A stretch of 64,000 nt of DNA, taken from contig OZ242372.1 of the NCBI GenBank assembly GCA_965209035.1, positions 768,001 through 832,000 of the forward strand, read 5' to 3'. The notes under the pieces were generated by a model. It was given only the letters and a program-made list of their open reading frames with translations. It searched no databases and had not been told where the DNA came from. This document shows, piece after piece, positions 6,265 through 56,895 of this stretch; positions within the stretch are counted from its first letter, which is position 1, and each line of letters starts with the position of its first letter. The translations under genes were made by a program, and so were the position numbers. The DNA comes from Gammaproteobacteria bacterium (lineage in GTDB: Bacteria > Pseudomonadota > Gammaproteobacteria > CBDBNL01 > JAAOII01).

Positions 6265-7104
6265 CTATTTTGTTTTCTCTTTTTCGTCGGCGGGCGATGA
6301 TGTTGCCGGTTTTTCCGTTTTCTCTTTTTGTTGACCCGCTTCCGCATCCTCTGCAGGAGCCGAGTCTTTTACAGGTTCGGTTTCGGCAACTTTGGGTTTC
6401 TCGGAAGCCTTTATTTCCTCTTTTTGTTGACCCGCTTCCGCATCCACATCCCCTGCAGGAGCCGAGTCTTTTACAGGTTCGGTTTTGGCAACTTCGGGTT
6501 TCTCGGAAGCCTTTATTTCCTCTTTTTGTTGACCCGCTTCCGCATCCACATCCCCTGCAGGAGCCGAGTCTTTTACAGGTTCGGTTTTGGCAACTTCGGG
6601 TTTCTCGGAAGCGGCGGCAGTGGGTTCTACTTTTTCTTCCGACTCGGGCTTTTTGTCGGAAGAAGTTACGGGTTCGGAGGTTGTCGGTGCTTCTTCATTT
6701 GCCTCCCCCTCACTTGCGGGTGTTTCTCCCGTGTCCGAACCTGCGGCAGAATCCGTCTTAGCGTTTTCGGCCGCTATCTCACCCTGTTCTTTTTGTTCTT
6801 TCTCTTTTTTCTTGGTGCGACGATGTTTTTTCTCTCTCCCCAAGAGTTCGTCCGACTCACCGGTTTTTTTGAGTTTTTTAATCAGATTATCGACGGTTTC
6901 GGAAGGGAGGGCACCTCTGTCAACCCAATAATCCACTCTCTCACGATTCACCCTGATATACACTTCTTCCCCTTTGGCAAGGGGGTTATAAAAACCTAAC
7001 TTCTCAATAAAACGCCCGGCACATGCCCGGCGCCTATCCGCCAAATTAATATGGTAAAAAGGAACCTTATGTGCTCCTTGACGCGTCAAACGAATAACTA
7101 ACAT
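6265..7104 (-). CDS. rpsP: 30S ribosomal protein S16 with long acidic, repetitive C-terminal extension
   Basis: N-terminal ~80 aa S16 (MLVIRLTRQG..PFY..GRFIEKLGFYNP) followed by ~200 aa rich in E/K/A/P. Confidence 0.95.
   Translation of the reverse strand: MLVIRLTRQGAHKVPFYHINLADRRRACAGRFIEKLGFYNPLAKGEEVYIRVNRERVDYWVDRGALPSETVDNLIKKLKKTGESDELLGREKKHRRTKKKEKEQKEQGEIAAENAKTDSAAGSDTGETPASEGEANEEAPTTSEPVTSSDKKPESEEKVEPTAAASEKPEVAKTEPVKDSAPAGDVDAEAGQQKEEIKASEKPEVAKTEPVKDSAPAGDVDAEAGQQKEEIKASEKPKVAETEPVKDSAPAEDAEAGQQKEKTEKPATSSPADEKEKTK
6322..6611 (-). repeat. In-frame tandem repeat of ~102 bp (34 aa), ~3 copies, one 6 bp shorter
   Basis: EKPEVAKTEPVKDSAPAGDVDAEAGQQKEEIKAS repeated; the DNA copies are near-identical. 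Confidence 0.92.
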
Positions 7105-7422
7105 TTGTTCATTATAAATAGAAAACCAATCATTTTTAGATTTTGAATAATGTTTTTTATCCTTACCCGTTACAAAAACCGGTAAGGAATTAAAAAACGT
7201 AAAATAACCAAGATATTTTTATCTCTTTGTGGTTAATTATAGATATGGCGGATACCAAAAAGCACTTATATTGTGCCAAATTCCGTAAAAATAGAACTTT
7301 TGCAAAAAAATTGTTCTAAAATGACTTTATGGCACCAAAAGCGGACTTTTCCGGAATTTTGAAGAGAGATCGCCCAAATAGTTTCAAGATTTCAAGATAG
7401 TAAAATACTTCTTTCGATAAAA

Positions 7423-8889
7423 ATGAAAATTAAGCAAGAAGCCTATACTTTTGACGATCTGCTGTTGTTACCGCGCTACTCGCAGGTGTTACCCAGGGAT
7501 GTGGATACCAGATCCCGTTTGACTTCTCAAATAGAACTCGGTATCCCCGTTCTTTCCGCGGCCATGGACACGGTGACCGAAGCAAACATGGCCATTGCAC
7601 TTGCAAAGGCCGGCGGTATCGGTGTCATTCATAAAAATATGAACATTGAAAAACAAACGGACGAAGCGCGCAAAGTTAAAAAACACGAAAGCGGGGTAGT
7701 GCGCAACCCCATTACCATCTCGCGGGATGCCACAATTGGTCAACTTCGTGAACTCACCGAAAAGCACGGTATTTCCGGTGTTCCCGTTGTGGAAAAAATG
7801 AATTCGAAAAGTTTGGCGGGGATTGTGACCGCCCGCGACACACGCTGCGAGGAAGACGATAACAAACCGGTTAAATCCGTCATGACCCCTCTAAAAAAAT
7901 TGGTAACCGCACCCAAAGGAATTGGCACCGAAGAGGCTCAAAAACTCATGCATCAAAACAGAATTGAAAAACTTCTGTTGGTCACGGACAACTCCACCCT
8001 GTGCGGAATGATGACATTAAAGGATATTCAATATGAAGAAAAATACCCGAATGCTTGTAAGGACGAAGACGGACGATTGCGCGTTGCCGCATCTATCGGC
8101 ACAGATCCCAAATCCATGGATCGCGCCCGGGCCCTGGCGGCGGTGGGGACGGATTTTCTTGTTCTGGACACGGCGCACGGTCATTCGCGCAAAGTAATCG
8201 ACATGATCAAATACTGCCGAAAGAACTTTCCTTCCACGGCCGTTATTGGCGGCAATATCGCCACAGGCGAGGCGGCCACGGATCTGGCAAAAGCCGGGGT
8301 TTCCGCGATCAAGGTTGGCATAGGCCCCGGCACCATTTGCACCACGCGAATCGTCACCGGTGTGGGTGTGCCTCAACTCACCGCGATTGCCGAAGCCCGG
8401 AGTGCCTTACGGAAAAAATTTCCGGAGGTGGGTATCATCGCCGACGGTGGCATTCGTTTTTCGGGAGACATGGTCAAGGCTCTTGCAGCCGGGGCACATG
8501 CTGTGATGTTGGGTAGCATCTTTGCCGGGACCAACGAAGCCCCCGGAGAGGTTGTTCTTTATCAAGGCAGATCCTATAAAAAGTATCGCGGTATGGGCTC
8601 CTTGGAAGCACTCAAAAAAGGATCGCGTGACCGATATTTTCAACAGCATCCGGAAAAACTTGTGCCGGAAGGTGTGGAAGGGATGGTGCCAAATCGCGGT
8701 GCCGTCAACCTGGTGATAGATCAGATTGTCGGAGGTCTCTGTTCGGCTATGGGTTATCTTGGTTGTAAGACGGTAAAAGAATTAACGGAAAATGCCGAGT
8801 TTGTCCGCGTCACCAAGGCGGGTATGCTGGAAAGCCATGTGCATGATGTTCGCATCACCAGCGAAGCGCCGAATTATCATCGCGAATGA
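7423..8889 (+). CDS. guaB: IMP dehydrogenase
   Basis: [11 protein letters not shown] pair, [25 protein letters not shown]. Confidence 0.97.
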
Positions 8890-11461: not shown

Positions 11462-12535
11462 TTGCTTAAGGAACCGAAACAAACATATATCGGCACGGAC
11501 CAAGTCATTCAAAGACAAAGAGTGCCGGAACATCTTGCGGGCCTGCGAGTTACACCTCCCTTATCGCAAGAAAGAAAAACTCTTTTGCAAAAAGAAATTA
11601 AACGGGTTATTAAAAAGAAAAATGCCGTCCTGATCGCACACTACTATGTGGATGAGGATTTACAGAAATTATCCGAAGAAACGGGCGGTTTTGTCGGCGA
11701 TTCTTTGGAAATGGCTCGCTTTGGCAAAAATCACCCTGCGGACATTCTTATCATTGCCGGGGTTAAGTTCATGGGCGAAACGGCGCAAATTCTCAGCCCG
11801 GACAAGACGGTCCTGATGCCCACTTTGGATGCCACCTGCTCTTTGGATTTGGGGTGTCCGGCCGAAGAGTTCAACGCTTTTTGTGAAGAGCATCCGGACA
11901 GAACCGTCATCGTCTATGCCAACACCTCGGCAGCCGTCAAAGCAAGAGCGGACTGGGTGGCGACTTCGTCAATTGCCATCAGTCTGGCAGAGCATCTGCA
12001 CGACCGCGGCGAAAAAATTCTGTGGGCACCGGATAAGTATCTGGGCAACTATATCGCACGCACAACGGGTGCCGATCTGCTATGCTGGAACAGTGCCTGC
12101 ATTGTTCACGAAGAATTCAAAGCACAGGGAATCAAGCGTCTTCTCAATGTGTATCCGCAAGCCGCTGTTTTGGTGCATCCCGAATCACCTCCGCCTGTCA
12201 TTGAAATGGCGGACAGGGTGGGTTCCACTTCTCAGCTGATTGCCGCAGTCAACGAACTGCCAAACGATACTTTTATCGTCGCCACAGATCGCGGGATATT
12301 CTACAAGATGCGGCAACAGGCGCCGAATAAACAACTGATCGCCGCACCGACAGCCGGCAAGGGTGCCACATGCCGAAGTTGCGCCCATTGCCCCTGGATG
12401 GCAATGAACGATTTGGAACGACTGGCGCAGTCTATCGAGGAAGAAACCAACAGAATTGACGTTCCCAAAGCACTTGCCCAAAAAGCGATCCTGCCGCTGC
12501 AACGCATGCTGCGATTTCGCCAAAAATACCACTAA
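11462..12535 (+). CDS. nadA: Quinolinate synthase
   Basis: [40 protein letters not shown]. Confidence 0.96.
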
Positions 12536-12571
12536 AAGCGCACATCTCACCCACGCACATAACAGACTGCG

Positions 12572-13153
12572 ATGTCTGAAATAGCAATTATTCTGCTCAG
12601 CACTGTTTTAGTGAACAATTTTGTTTTAACACAGTTTCTGGGTTTATGCCCCTTCATGGGGGTTTCGTCCAAGTTTGCAAACACCCTGAGTATGTCCGCG
12701 GCTACTTCGTTTGTTCTGACGCTCTCCGCAGCCGCCGCTTATCTTATTTATCATTACATTCTCGTCCCTCTCAATGCCGAGTTCATGCGAACAGTCGTCT
12801 TAATTATGGTCATTGCCGCCCTGGTTCAACTGACGGAGATGATTATCCGGCGAGTGAGCCCATTAATGTACCGAGTTCTGGGAATTTTCTTGCCTCTCAT
12901 CACTTCCAATTGTGCCGTGCTGGGTGTCGCCCTGCTCACCTTAACTCGCACGGATTCATTTACCGATGCTTTGTTTTATGGCTTTGGCGCCTCTCTCGGC
13001 TTCTCTTTGGTTCTCATTCTTTTTTCCGCATTGCGCGAAAAAATGGCACTGGCGGATATCCCCAAGCCGCTGCGAGGCACCGCGATTGCCATGATCACGG
13101 CCGGGCTGATCAGTATGATCTTCATGGGATTTGACGGACTGGTCAAATCTTAA
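12572..13153 (+). CDS. rsxA: Rnf/Rsx electron transport complex subunit A
   Basis: [34 protein letters not shown]; hydrophobic. Confidence 0.92.
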
Positions 13154-34134: not shown

Positions 34135-34346
34135 TTATACCGACCAAACCCCGACACAGAGCAAGTCATCTGTGCCCGTCTATAAAATAATATTTCTTCT
34201 GTGTTTGTTTAATGAACGATATGCAATACGAGATACAATAAAAGTACAATACATTATTAACCTTGAAGGACTATAAAAAAATTAAAATCTGTCTCTTTTT
34301 CCGTTTGGTTATTGGTTAAGTGTGTTCCCGCGAACCGCCCAATCAT
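34135..34346 (+). repeat. Left copy of a 212-bp direct repeat (IS1634 target duplication)
   Basis: TTATACCGACC...CGCCCAATCAT; appears identical by eye to 36333..36544. Confidence 0.95.
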
Positions 34347-36332: not shown

Positions 36333-36544
36333 TTATACCGACCAAACCCCGACACAGAGCAAGTCATCTGTGCCCGTCTATAAAATAATATTTCTTCTGT
36401 GTTTGTTTAATGAACGATATGCAATACGAGATACAATAAAAGTACAATACATTATTAACCTTGAAGGACTATAAAAAAATTAAAATCTGTCTCTTTTTCC
36501 GTTTGGTTATTGGTTAAGTGTGTTCCCGCGAACCGCCCAATCAT
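36333..36544 (+). repeat. Right copy of the 212-bp direct repeat
   Basis: Starts on the base after the right IR and matches 34135..34346. Confidence 0.95.
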
Positions 36545-37890: not shown

Positions 37891-37930
37891 GTCGCATCCC
37901 AAAAAGCATACCCCAAAAAACATAAACATA

Positions 37931-40206: not shown

Positions 40207-40313
40207 GTTCATACAAAAAACATTGCAAAAAACATTAAAGACCTGTTACTTTTTAATATGTGGTTTAAGTTTTACCACTGCAAAACCAAAAGACTTTTTA
40301 ATCCTTTACCGGA

Positions 40314-48154: not shown

Positions 48155-48203
48155 GTTTTTGGGTTTTTAGGTTTTTGGGTTTTTGGGTTTTTGGGTTTTT
48201 AGG
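48155..48203. repeat. 8-bp tandem repeat (G/A)GGTTTTT, ~6 copies
   Basis: Read directly between the convergent rsmE and mdh genes. Confidence 0.88.
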
Positions 48204-49381: not shown

Positions 49382-49513
49382 AATGCTTCTATTATACTTT
49401 TATGCTTTTACTTTAACCCGATGACGCTTAAGAAAAAAGAAGTTTCCTCATAATTGAAAACCGCGAAGGACCGGATACCGCGCCTGGCCCGCCCCGGATC
49501 GCGCACTTCCATT

Positions 49514-50641
49514 TCACTTATATTCCCCTTTATCTTCTCTCAGATTGGGGGCATTGATGAGCAAGCGGAGAAGTGGCCTATGAACATAATAATAAGATCT
49601 GGCATGATATTTGTTTTCTTCTACCATGCCTATTTCTTTTAGAATACCGATATACTTGATCGCAGTTAGAGGTGAAATCCTCAGCTCGGTTGTCAAGAGT
49701 TTGCGGGTGATGATCGGATATTGAAAGAGTGCATTGAGTAGATCCTGGCTGTAAATTTTCGTTTCGTTTCGCAATCGGTCTTTTTGCTCCCGCATCAGTT
49801 CCTTTATCTTGGATATGGTTTCCAGGGTTCCGCGCGCGGTGGTATCCGCCGCACGCAGGATGTATGCAATCCACTCGCGCCAGGTTTCGGCATCTTGTCG
49901 CAACCTCACTTTCTGCAAAAGTTCATAGTATTTGGCTTTGTTGTGCGTAATGTAGCGACTGAGATATAGGATAGGGCTATCCAGCAGACCGGCCATGATG
50001 AGATAAAGAATGCAGATCATCCGCCCTGTTCTGCCTTTGCCATCGTAAAAAGGGTGAACGCTCTCAAATTGATGATGAATCAACGCCATTCGGACCAAGG
50101 GATGCAGGTCGTCCAATTCGCCCTGCTTGGTATTAATGTATTCCAACAGGTTGTTGAGCAGGGAAAGAATTTCTTGCTCATCTTGCGGCGGTGTGTAAAC
50201 GATCTCGCCGCCGCTGTTCTTAAGCACCGTGCCGGGAAGTTTGCGAATGCCCGCATTATTGGCAAGCAGTTTTTCTTGTATGGCACAAAGGAGATCCAAC
50301 CTGAAATGCCCTTCTTCCTTTATTGTTTCGTATCCGTGAAGCATGGCGGGGATATAGTTGTGAACTTCCTTGGCGGCGGGATTTTGAGAACCCATTTTTG
50401 CTCGTGCCATAAACAGATCGTCGTGGGTCGTGATGATGTTTTCTATTTCGGAACTGTCCTTTGCCTCCTGTATGGGTAAAGTGGAAAGCAGTATACTTTT
50501 GTTGGGTATGGACTCGGCCATGCCCTTTAGTTCGGCAAGGCTACTGCGAGCGTCCCCCAATAACAGAGCCAGCCGTATATCCATTAATTTTAATGATAAC
50601 GGAAGGCACTCTATTTGGGCAACTTGAGTATTGATCGTCAT
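49514..50641 (-). CDS. Fic family protein (class II) with probable C-terminal HTH
   Basis: N-terminal inhibitory motif SSEIEN, HHQFESVHPFYDGKGRTGR, PILYLSRYI; C-terminal ...ELRIS.LTA.KYI..L. Confidence 0.9.
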   Translation of the reverse strand: MTINTQVAQIECLPLSLKLMDIRLALLLGDARSSLAELKGMAESIPNKSILLSTLPIQEAKDSSEIENIITTHDDLFMARAKMGSQNPAAKEVHNYIPAMLHGYETIKEEGHFRLDLLCAIQEKLLANNAGIRKLPGTVLKNSGGEIVYTPPQDEQEILSLLNNLLEYINTKQGELDDLHPLVRMALIHHQFESVHPFYDGKGRTGRMICILYLIMAGLLDSPILYLSRYITHNKAKYYELLQKVRLRQDAETWREWIAYILRAADTTARGTLETISKIKELMREQKDRLRNETKIYSQDLLNALFQYPIITRKLLTTELRISPLTAIKYIGILKEIGMVEENKYHARSYYYVHRPLLRLLINAPNLREDKGEYK

Positions 50642-50672
50642 AAGAGGTAATTGGTGTTGTTATACCAATAAG

Positions 50673-51359
50673 TATACATAAAAAATGGTAAAAAGTATAT
50701 AACCTTCCAAAAGATTATATAAAAAATAGTAAAAAGTATATAAACCTTCAAAGGAATGTATAAAAAATAGCAAAAAGTATATAACCTTCTAAAAGATTAT
50801 ATAAAAAATAGTAAAAAATATATAAACCTTCAAAGGAATGTATAAAAAATAGCAAAAAGTATATAACCTTCCAAAAGATTATATAAAAAATGGTAAAAAG
50901 TATATAACCTTCCAAAAGATTATATAAAAAATGGTAAAAAGTATATAACCTTCCAAAAGATTATATAAAAAATAGCAAAAAGTATATAACCTTCTAAAAG
51001 ATTATATAAAAAATAGCAAAAAGTATATAACCTTCCAAAAGATTATATAAAAAATGGTAAAAAATTTATAGATATAGTATGAACTACAAACAAATAGCAT
51101 AAAAGTTTATAGATATAGTATGAACTACAAACAAATAGCATAAAAGTTTATAGATAAAGGACTATCTATAAAGAAATACCAAAAAAGTTTATAGATGAAG
51201 GACTATCTATAAAGAAATGCCGAAAAAGTTTATAGATGAAGGACTATCTATAAAGAAATGCCGAAAAAGTTTATAGATGAAGGACTATCTATAAAGAAAT
51301 GCCGAAAAAGTTTATAGATGAAGGACTATCTATAAAGAAATGCCGAAAAAGTTTATAGA
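50673..51359. repeat. Array of ~17 palindromic 41-bp units in four sequence classes
   Basis: Anchor (G/A)T(A/T)TATA recurs at 50695, 50736, 50777 ... 51351 with an exact 41-bp period; very AT-rich; non-coding. Confidence 0.96.
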
Positions 51360-51418
51360 CAAAAAAGCCTTTTCCGGTTCGGTAAACGCATGCATCCCGT
51401 CAATTGCAGACGGGTCTC

Positions 51419-51970
51419 CTATTTGTCGGGGACGGGCGAAAGTAACCCTGTCAGTTTGTTGACCGTTCGCCAATTTCTGGTAGTGGCGGACATCTTAAGT
51501 TTGGACTCAAAGAATGTATTGGATAGTCTGGTGCGCGCATAACCGGCCGGCAGGTAAAAGAACAGTTCGCGCCCGCACAGTCGCACCTCTTCGCCGGATA
51601 TCTTGACACGCTCAATTGCCGGCAGCGGCAGGGAAGCGGGTTCTTCGGACAGAAAGGTAACATAAATGATGTTGGTGCCATCCGTTGAGTTCACAAAGGG
51701 ACAAGCGGCAATTGTCTGTTGCCATTGTGCCGCCGTGCGAACAAACACTTTAATTTGCAACCCAAATGCCTTCTCTATTGTTCTTTCCAAAGAACCTTCC
51801 AATTGCTCGGCCGGCTGCCTGTGTGCGGTGAACACCACATTCCCGCTTTGAATATAGGTACTCACTTTTTTAAGCCCTGTCTCTTCGTAAACGGCCGCCA
51901 ATTCCTTCATACGGATAGGATTTCGCCCCGCCATATTGACACCGCGCAACAGAGAAACATAGGTTTCCAT
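51419..51970 (-). CDS. DUF1697 domain protein
   Basis: YVSLLRGVN.G.N.I.M.EL, TYIQSGNVVF, TTRNWRTV.KL. Confidence 0.88.
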   Translation of the reverse strand: METYVSLLRGVNMAGRNPIRMKELAAVYEETGLKKVSTYIQSGNVVFTAHRQPAEQLEGSLERTIEKAFGLQIKVFVRTAAQWQQTIAACPFVNSTDGTNIIYVTFLSEEPASLPLPAIERVKISGEEVRLCGRELFFYLPAGYARTRLSNTFFESKLKMSATTRNWRTVNKLTGLLSPVPDK

Positions 51971-53536: not shown

Positions 53537-53619
53537 GCCGAGGTGGCGGAATAGGTAGACGCGCCGGTCTCAAAAACCGGTTCCTTTTGGGAGTGCGAGT
53601 TCAAGTCTCGCCCTCGGTA
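53537..53619 (+). tRNA. tRNA-Leu (anticodon CAA), 3' CCA not encoded
   Basis: Acceptor GCCGAGG/CCTCGGT, D loop GGTAGAC, anticodon arm CCGGT-CTCAAAA-ACCGG, long variable arm, T loop GTTCAAGT. Confidence 0.95.
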
Positions 53620-56001: not shown

Positions 56002-56895
56002 ATGGCCACCTACGCCATAGGAGACATTCACGGCTGTTACCGCTCTTTGCGAGCATTACTGGAAAAAATAAACTACCGTCCGCAGACGGACATCCTTTGG
56101 TTCACCGGCGACCTGGTCGGCAAGGGCCCCGAACCCTTACGGGTCTTGCGACAAATAAAAAGCATGCACGAGGAGAATCCGCGCCTGCAAATTGTTTTGG
56201 GGAATCACGATCTGCATCTGATAGCGACGGCTCTTGCCGTTTTTGAACCGGCGGCGGAAGCAAAGCAGGACCCAACGCTTGCCGAGACGCTCGCCGCGGA
56301 TGCGAAGGACCCGACCCTGCTGGACTGGCTGAGGTGCCAGCCGCTGCTCTGTCATAGCCGCGAACATCACACGGTATTGACCCATGCCGGCATCCCGCAC
56401 ATTTGGACATTGAACACTGCGAAGCAACAGGCACGCACCATCGAAAAATTGCTGCGGCTCCCCCGACCGGAATTAAAAAAAGCCCTGCCTCTGCTCTATG
56501 GCAACCGCCCGAACGGTTGGTCGCAATGTGCCGATTTTTGGGACAGAGCGCGTTTGAGCGTGAACTATCTCACACGCATGCGGTTTTGTGACAACCGCGG
56601 CAGCTTGGATTTGGAACAAACGGGAAAAACACACCCGAATTCGGACTATGCCCCCTGGTTTTCCTACGAACCGCTTGTCACACAACGGCAAGTCTTTGGT
56701 CACTGGGCGGCATTACGCGGCAAAACCGGCAAGCCGGGTATTTGGGGGATGGATTACGGCTGTGTGTGGGGCGATACTCTGGCCGCTCGCAGCCCGGAGG
56801 ACGGCAGGTGTTATTTCGCCCCCTATGCCGAAAAAATATCATCCGAAAAAACATCACCAAAAAAAATGCCGCCCGACAAAGTAACCCCTCAATAA
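56002..56895 (+). CDS. apaH: Symmetrical bis(5'-nucleosyl)-tetraphosphatase
   Basis: YAIGDIHGC, GDLV, LGNHDLH, HAG, TRMRF, FGHWAAL, D.GCVWG. Confidence 0.95.
   Translation: MATYAIGDIHGCYRSLRALLEKINYRPQTDILWFTGDLVGKGPEPLRVLRQIKSMHEENPRLQIVLGNHDLHLIATALAVFEPAAEAKQDPTLAETLAADAKDPTLLDWLRCQPLLCHSREHHTVLTHAGIPHIWTLNTAKQQARTIEKLLRLPRPELKKALPLLYGNRPNGWSQCADFWDRARLSVNYLTRMRFCDNRGSLDLEQTGKTHPNSDYAPWFSYEPLVTQRQVFGHWAALRGKTGKPGIWGMDYGCVWGDTLAARSPEDGRCYFAPYAEKISSEKTSPKKMPPDKVTPQ

Follow-up and report, generated by a model that had tools for sequence, protein, structure and literature searches.

Several DNA-binding Fic proteins have been described. CccR of Yersinia pseudotuberculosis, a class II Fic protein whose C terminus bears a helix–turn–helix (HTH) and that is an effector of the type VI secretion system (T6SS), represses its own promoter as a dimer via two 10-bp inverted repeats, which have a 26-bp spacer and are located near the −35/−10 boxes (PMC9755527). 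This binding is documented by footprinting, electrophoretic mobility shift assay, and isothermal titration calorimetry, it requires both the dimer and the HTH, and the DNA-binding helices of CccR lie 70.2 Å apart (PMC9755527). In the case of SoFic (Shewanella oneidensis), the first 100 bp upstream of the SoFic start codon are bound by the dimer and not by a mutant that is monomeric, whereas the dimer leaves a random fragment of equal GC content unbound (bioRxiv 10.64898/2026.07.09.737422). SoFic is a widespread single-gene phage-defense toxin, for which Escherichia coli has a 47-aa antitoxin encoded downstream (PMC12249575), and when CbFic2 of Coxiella binds DNA through its HTH, its activity changes from AMPylation to deAMPylation (PMC10628234). 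The mechanisms proposed for the silencing and later release of SoFic are autoinhibition, a small antitoxin, and DNA binding (bioRxiv 10.64898/2026.07.09.737422, PMC12249575, PMC10628234). Here we analyze a 64,000-nt stretch of DNA from a Gammaproteobacteria bacterium (GCA_965209035.1, contig OZ242372.1, positions 768,001 to 832,000 of the forward strand), referred to as the window, in which a SoFic-type class II Fic gene is preceded by a tandem array of 41-bp units.

We propose that the array probably consists of amplified autoregulatory operators to which the Fic protein would bind with its winged helix. In comparisons with related loci the 41-bp unit is the ordinary operator module of its clade, amplified in the window, because upstream regions of related loci show a repeat peak at lags of 40–43. 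The initial annotation had ranked the locus as the best candidate for a new system in the window and offered two models, an operator array read by the Fic HTH and an array of stem-loop RNAs. The first model is supported indirectly by the SoFic-type protein, the published relatives, and the 40–43-bp dyads of related loci; there is no such support for a new system, given that autoregulation of winged-HTH Fic genes via promoter palindromes is already published. What is unusual here is the 16-fold amplification, which makes the locus an uncommon form of an established self-regulation circuit. Our full-text literature search returned the CccR, SoFic, and CbFic2 papers but no amplified operator array before a Fic gene, in agreement with the annotation's remark that it knew of no described Fic system with such an array, and no account of operator modules arranged in tandem at intervals of helical turns ahead of Fic genes, with the reservation that the supplements of the CccR, SoFic, and CbFic2 papers may hold promoter sequences.

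Like the CccR locus, the window locus encodes a Fic protein of class II that has its HTH at the C terminus, and its own promoter region contains inverted repeats. It differs in that CccR has one palindrome with 10-bp arms, compared with 16–17 tandem dyads in the window that have 7–9-bp arms, 12–15-bp spacers, and a 41-bp period, and in that CccR is a T6SS effector whereas the window protein shows no sign of secretion. CccR is absent among the Protein Data Bank (PDB) matches of the window protein at E ≤ 1e-10 and is thus a more distant relative than SoFic. The likeness to SoFic and its E. coli counterpart EcSofic is closer, as family and domain architecture are the same; these single-gene anti-phage Fic proteins are toxic and are restrained by an inhibitory helix at the N terminus (PMC12249575; bioRxiv 10.64898/2026.07.09.737422), and the corresponding motif is present in the window protein. 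The available portions of the SoFic sources report no operator array, in contrast to the 16 units found here.

Structure and symmetry of the array

Read in a fixed 41-bp register, positions 50654–51359 form a head-to-tail array of abutting units, of which 16 are full units in exact register (50695–51350), flanked by partial or degenerate units (Table 1). Tandem Repeats Finder (TRF) reports a period of 41 with 0–2% indels over 50678–51070 (score 621) and 51046–51359 (score 404). The number of units, the exact period, and the class counts given in the initial annotation all hold in a unit-by-unit reading: there are seven A1, two A2, two B, and five C units, in the order A1 A2 A1 A2, five A1, two B, five C, with 11 distinct sequences among the full units. 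Within the A-type block, units 1–4 constitute an 82-bp higher-order repeat and the half-sites occupy unit positions 1–8 and 21–28. The array is ~19% G+C, compared with ~46% in the Fic gene and ~52% in the surroundings. Its motifs are confined to the array within the 64-kb window, with observed counts reached by none of 100 shuffles. The final recognizable repeat base lies ~28 nt from the Fic ATG, close to the ~30 bp claimed previously; the gene is on the minus strand, a correction to the earlier placement, and the array is therefore upstream in the gene's own orientation. A comparison of the array with plasmid and phage sequences (blastn, distant mode) gave no match, with the caveat that the low-complexity filter may have masked much of the A+T-rich query. 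A CRISPR array was ruled out, as the units abut head to tail and their variable centers fall into four classes rather than being unique spacers.

Tandem repeats of ~700 bp are difficult for short-read assembly, and an incorrect copy number or a wholly artifactual array must be weighed for this reason. We regard this as extremely unlikely, given that the distinct unit sequences occur in ordered blocks, the contig spans 2.18 Mb, and the junctions of the array flanks with the Fic start and the DUF1697 gene are clean.

The units are symmetric about the axis i+j=29, where i and j are paired unit positions. Over the 11 distinct units, 100 of 132 cells on this axis are Watson–Crick pairs, whereas other axes in the range 23–35 give 19–69 paired cells out of 99–165 each, and none of 5000 column permutations reached 100. 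Pairs were counted by script in the fixed register, as a MAFFT alignment disrupted the unit register. The annotation's statement that all classes keep this axis is correct overall, with a weak dyad in class B. The covarying pairs it listed are borne out by the pair counts: 3:26 (A-T/T-A), 8:21 (A-T/G-C), 10:19 (C-G/T-A), and 11:18 (T-A/C-G, plus A-T in a single C unit) each show at least two Watson–Crick types. Four such pairs arose in 53 of 5000 permutations, and three of the four divide A-type from B/C-type units, which amounts to one evolutionary split and hence few independent lineages.

Each unit contains the half-site GTWTATAR at positions 1–8 and its complement at 21–28, in inverted orientation, such that half-site orientation alternates over ~700 bp with centers alternately 19 bp (within a unit) and 22 bp (across a junction) apart. 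These spacings are close to the ~20.6 bp of B-DNA that correspond arithmetically to the 70.2 Å between the CccR helices, and we place both in the family range of 20–24 bp. As expected of a periodic array, a second axis (i+j=70), centered in the linker, is equally symmetric. The stretch comprising right arm, linker, and next left arm is 57–87% identical between classes, compared with 9–64% for the unit center (positions 9–19), and this pattern of conservation favors a junction-centered operator over a within-unit one.

The same symmetry raises the second model of the annotation, in which the array would be transcribed into 41-nt stem-loop RNAs that regulate or neutralize Fic in the manner of a type III antitoxin or a small RNA (sRNA). 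In type III toxin–antitoxin systems such as ToxIN, short tandem repeats lie immediately upstream of a same-strand toxin gene. The array shares this position directly before a toxin-like gene, a hairpin is possible in every class, the four covarying pairs change on both sides, and class C on the plus strand (z −3.2) and class A1 on the minus strand (z −3.3) fold better than shuffled sequences. The hairpins are nevertheless A-U-rich and weak (−2.0 to −7.7 kcal/mol), with four of eight folds within 2 standard deviations of shuffles. Mismatches in A2 and C are G:T (G:U as RNA) on the plus strand but those in A1 are G:U on the minus strand only, and this split means that neither strand is favored. 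Rfam at gathering level matched only a tRNA in the whole window, and relaxing the threshold to E values up to 10 on 50400–51600 yielded only chance-level matches, which involved two sRNA families and one microRNA family. There is no minus-strand terminator-like site between 50642 and the array, and the toxin contains only Fic-family domains rather than a ToxN/AbiQ-type endoribonuclease. The locus thus departs from ToxIN in toxin family, RNA folding, Rfam matches, and terminator, and we find no support for the RNA model, which is very unlikely also in view of the DNA binding demonstrated for two relatives at their own promoters (PMC9755527; bioRxiv 10.64898/2026.07.09.737422).

Probable operator modules of related loci

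The initial annotation proposed a search for ~41-bp periodic dyads upstream of homologs, and such dyads are present. We compared 24 related loci with 42–49% protein identity, four from a scan of genome contigs and 20 from plasmids, that represent Bacteroidota, Alpha- and Gammaproteobacteria, Cyanobacteriota, and Clostridium. By eye, most contain locus-specific inverted half-sites of 6–9 bp around a 12–17-bp A/T-rich spacer with a G/C center; these dyads, in most cases a tandem pair, lie no more than ~110 bp from the start codon. Lag counts were made over the region −130..−1 of 23 non-redundant loci, leaving out L017, a near-copy of L009, and counting the related Hymenobacter loci L006 and L016 separately. 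Direct 6-mer matches at lags of 40, 41, 42, and 43 number 19, 22, 25, and 9, respectively. This total of 75, to which 15 of the 23 loci contribute, compares with a mean of 3.6 and a maximum of 14 in 200 dinucleotide shuffles and with control counts of two inside the gene and three in a stretch 200 bp further upstream. Inverted 6-mers with center distances of 16–27 are similarly enriched (121 vs. ~14.5 in shuffles).

A stricter count found at least one dyad pairing at eight or more of nine arm positions in 12 of 16 loci (17 dyads vs. ~4 expected), and an inside-gene control found none in the same 16. Pairs of dyads at lags of 38–45 occur in 17 of the 24 loci (controls: 3, 3, and 1 of 24), and in 10 of the 24 the left arms of the pair are alike at four or more of seven positions. 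In the two-dyad promoters of SoFic-like genes (L004, L005, L008, L009, L010, L015, L018, and others), half-site centers are 20–24 bp apart and the repeat is 40–43 bp; these relatives have two, sometimes about three, modules, in contrast to the 16 of the window. The window locus agrees with this clade-typical repeat, with a period of exactly 41 bp, and with CccR- and SoFic-type promoters in having its inverted repeats, the array dyad, upstream of the gene. The covariation within the array also has a counterpart: the two operators of L009 differ at two arm positions, both mirrored in the partner arm, and in L015 one of two arm differences is mirrored.

These comparisons bear on the annotation's argument that slippage explains neither the fixed length nor the covariation. 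Given that relatives already have a 41-bp module with dyad symmetry, slippage that copies whole modules accounts for both. We suggest that the module, which relatives have twice, 40–43 bp apart and no more than ~110 bp from the start codon, was copied as a whole by unequal recombination or slippage until the count in the window reached 16. Two or three ancestral operators would have given rise to the blocks, C/B distal and A proximal to the gene, and the B units, whose arm is C-like and whose linker is A-like, would be hybrids. Copying of whole modules would account for a fixed unit length, for the classes, and for identical neighbors, which the class blocks do contain, as tandem duplication predicts.

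With respect to function, the Fic protein may dimerize through its N-terminal helix, like its relatives, and the two C-terminal winged helices of a dimer may occupy one pair of half-sites. Given that a 41-bp repeat is about four helical turns, successive dimers would be arranged along one face of the DNA. More sites would bind more dimers, resulting in tighter and more cooperative self-repression or in titration of Fic, and expression could depend on the copy number of the units. Every A unit contains a weak sigma-70-like match directed toward the Fic gene (9 of 12 hexamer positions), so that the number of promoters may rise with amplification; the promoter scan as a whole gave 14 sites where 7.7 ± 3.0 are expected in A+T-rich repeated DNA, a weak signal.

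The clade-wide plan would consist of locus-specific inverted half-sites about two helical turns apart that repeat every four turns. The window represents a 16-module extreme of this plan, in which an effect of operator number on the expression or storage of a Fic toxin can be tested directly; even if the amplification is neutral, the locus is a clean source of operator sequence for binding studies.

Tandem arrays of this form are also read by other DNA-binding proteins. Some plasmid centromeres consist of ~43-bp tandem units with internal inverted repeats, and sopC-type centromeres and iteron sets are likewise tandem units of about four turns with an internal inverted repeat that are read by HTH proteins and titrate the binding protein. 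The array could by this likeness be a partition centromere, a set of replication iterons, or a nucleation site for nucleoid proteins, which are attracted to very A+T-rich DNA (here 19% GC), with no relation to Fic. This is highly improbable, as the array is chromosomal and Fic-linked, its neighbors are housekeeping genes, and no ParA/ParB, Rep, or other partition or replication gene is nearby. Moreover, DnaA-box matches (17 vs. 12.7 expected in the window) do not cluster and none falls in the array, the motif is unique within the window, and the 40–43-bp period and dyad form accompany SoFic-like genes across phyla.

Some related loci have features of their own. The SoFic-like gene of L008 lies between genes for a class I S-adenosylmethionine (SAM)-dependent DNA methyltransferase and a restriction endonuclease subunit S, that of L022 comes after a gene for a class I SAM-dependent DNA methyltransferase, and in L007 a DNA methyltransferase gene comes after the SoFic-like gene. 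Such positions are consistent with a defense-island role. The L001 sequence (Lewinellaceae) contains a 73–74-bp unit in 2.6 copies at each of five places (1302–1493, 1869–2060, 2438–2629, 7254–7451, and 12444–12635), three of which are ~568 bp apart.

The Fic protein and the weighing of the operator proposal

The Fic open reading frame (ORF) is intact and full length. Its product matches the Pfam domains Fic_N, Fic, and SoFic-like_C (E values of 2e-26, 9e-16, and 1e-6, all above curated cut-offs), the PADLOC SoFic model over nearly its full length (E = 2e-103, residues 13–361), and the SoFic chains of the PDB (E values of 1e-63 to 2e-68). The inhibitory helix motif [ST]xxxE[GN] is present as SSEIEN from residue 63, a string found in 44 of the best 120 homologs. 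The family is very large, with at least 8000 homologs at E ≤ 0.001, and relatives are present on 701 plasmid records. In comparison with the closest relative, which is 88% identical, the winged helix differs at 20 of 75 residues and the rest of the protein at 28 of 300 (Fisher p = 2e-4), such that the winged helix is the fastest-diverging part; this fits either a fast co-evolution between the operator and its reader or a relaxation of constraint.

The Fic signature HxFx(D/E)GNGRxxR is incomplete. The window protein reads HPFYDGKGRTGR, with a lysine (Lys202) at the Asn position, and it thereby lacks the residue that in SoFic contacts the ATP alpha-phosphate (PMC3667792). Among the best 120 homologs this position is N in 118, S in one, and K in one, which is the window protein itself; the 88% relative has N. 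Lys202 may alter or attenuate the activity of the enzyme.

EcSofic has a small downstream antitoxin gene (PMC12249575), but no homolog of such a gene was found among the 24 loci compared, a comparison made without the EcAS1 sequence itself. The candidates considered in the window for an EcAS1-like antitoxin were minus-strand ORFs of 34 aa (49408–49512) and 29 aa (49428–49517), both of which begin at or just past the Fic stop. Their best E value against ORFs downstream of the 24 loci was 0.34, and given this lack of similarity they are probably not genes.

Several observations weigh against the operator proposal. The lysine in the active site may mean that the gene is decaying, and if so the amplification could be neutral. 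The dyad of class B is poor, with only 7–8 of 14 pairs, and the half-sites of A-type and C-type units differ at two of eight positions. These differences are mirrored in the partner arm, which is more than simple dimer recognition requires; template switching within palindromes and selection for symmetric sites are both possible causes. The CccR operator has a 26-bp spacer, as opposed to ~12–15 bp in the array. Among the related loci, eight of 23 have no 6-mer at lags of 40–43, seven of the 17 dyad pairs, whose left arms agree at three or fewer of seven positions, may be due to chance, and start codons were inferred for L001–L004, L014, and L020, with those of L003 and L014 doubtful. Finally, eight more distant loci (29–45% identity) have one 6-mer in all at lags of 40–43. 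Four of these eight, from Salmonella, Thermus, Agrobacterium, and Citrobacter plasmids (L026, L029, L031, and L032; 29–40% identity), instead repeat at 30–31 bp, about three helical turns, with 22 six-mers in the upstream 130 bp. The four-turn module therefore belongs to the clade of the window protein, whereas a three-turn spacing seems to be in use elsewhere, in a different clade.

Alternatively, the units could be operator modules by descent and the 16-fold expansion an unstable tandem repeat, neutral or decaying, with no added function; attenuation of the toxin may be the reason that it is tolerated. Blocks of identical neighbors are typical of recent slippage, Lys202 replaces an otherwise nearly invariant Asn, and TRF found no such array in the 600 bp upstream of any of the 32 other loci, which argues against a conserved design; the sole tandem repeat near a start codon in this set is a 72-bp × 1.9 duplication of the operator region in L002. 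We nevertheless consider a purely neutral repeat unlikely, as the register is exact over 17 units with zero indels, dyad symmetry is kept except in class B, the 11 distinct unit sequences indicate that the array is not brand new, the Fic gene is intact, and the gene neighborhood is conserved in a related genome.

An extension of the amplified-operator proposal, by analogy to CbFic2, is that the array might be a chromosomal docking platform storing about sixteen DNA-bound Fic dimers in a deAMPylating state. Phage DNA, DNA breakdown, or a change in supercoiling would disturb the DNA or compete for Fic and so release monomers or free dimers, and the released Fic would AMPylate a target such as EF-Tu, stopping growth in abortive infection. 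We are cautious about this idea, which appears distinctly improbable; if it were true, unit copy number would set the threshold, and amplification would have made the autorepressor into a sensor for abortive infection that responds to the state of the DNA and can be tuned.

Gene neighborhood and other features of the window

The features of the Fic locus and the best-defined dyad pairs of related loci are collected in Table 1. Terminator-like sites in the region are not significantly enriched (4 vs. 2.8 expected).

Table 1. Features of the Fic locus (window coordinates) and dyad pairs upstream of related genes (positions relative to the start codon)
Feature	Position	Strand	Lag	Center-to-center	Remarks
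SoFic-type class II Fic gene, 375 aa	49514–50641	−			Fic_N, Fic core, SoFic-like C-terminal winged helix
SoFic-like_C winged-helix coding part	49574–49798	−			Residues 282–356 (Pfam); presumed array reader
Codon AAA, Lys202 within Fic signature motif	50036–50038	−			Asn position in relatives
Degenerate unit nearest Fic gene	50654–50694				In 41-bp register; resemblance to other units limited to final ~25 nt
A-type block, nine units	50695–51063				Order A1 A2 A1 A2 A1 A1 A1 A1 A1
B-type block, two units	51064–51145				Weak dyad; left arm C-like, linker A-like
C-type block, five units	51146–51350				Four of five identical; 9–10-bp arms around 8-nt center
Partial unit closing array	51351–51359				9 nt, start of C/B-type left arm
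Terminator-like hairpin	51396–51414	+			37 nt past array, just ahead of DUF1697 gene stop; boundary feature of uncertain meaning
L004 dyad pair			40	20	
L008 dyad pair			42	21	
L009 dyad pair	−86..−8		41	24	
L010 dyad pair			41	20–22	
L015 dyad pair	−103..−25		41	24	
L018 dyad pair			42	20	

The adjacent upstream gene, on the minus strand, encodes a DUF1697 protein (51419–51970), and a malate dehydrogenase gene lies downstream of the Fic gene; the best named relatives of this dehydrogenase are ~60% identical and come from Cellvibrionaceae and Rhodanobacteraceae. The source lineage appears to be uncultured and gammaproteobacterium-like. Other neighbors, identified from ORFs and Pfam, encode a pyridoxal phosphate (PLP) decarboxylase, RsmE, and the CCA enzyme. 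In the closest relative, compared at the protein level only, cca, mdh (90%), the Fic gene (88%), the DUF1697 gene, and the decarboxylase gene occur together on a 20.7-kb contig, and its cca, decarboxylase, and DUF1697 proteins share 90%-identity clusters with those of the window. Conservation of this neighborhood in a related genome indicates that the Fic gene is not a strain-specific insertion.

Elsewhere in the window, a tRNA-Leu (anticodon caa) at 53537–53619 is the sole Rfam or ARAGORN match. An exact 212-nt direct repeat occurs at 34135–34346 and 36333–36544 (spacing 2198 bp), and an 8-bp unit, GTTTTTGG, is repeated 5.8 times at 48155–48200, between the end of the rsmE-like gene and that of mdh. 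Further short tandem repeats of A/T runs are located at 2143–2236, 37898–37924, 40214–40236, and 56828–56865. A 102-bp unit is present three times at 6318–6612 (95% matches), and given that 102 is a multiple of three, this repeat may be coding.

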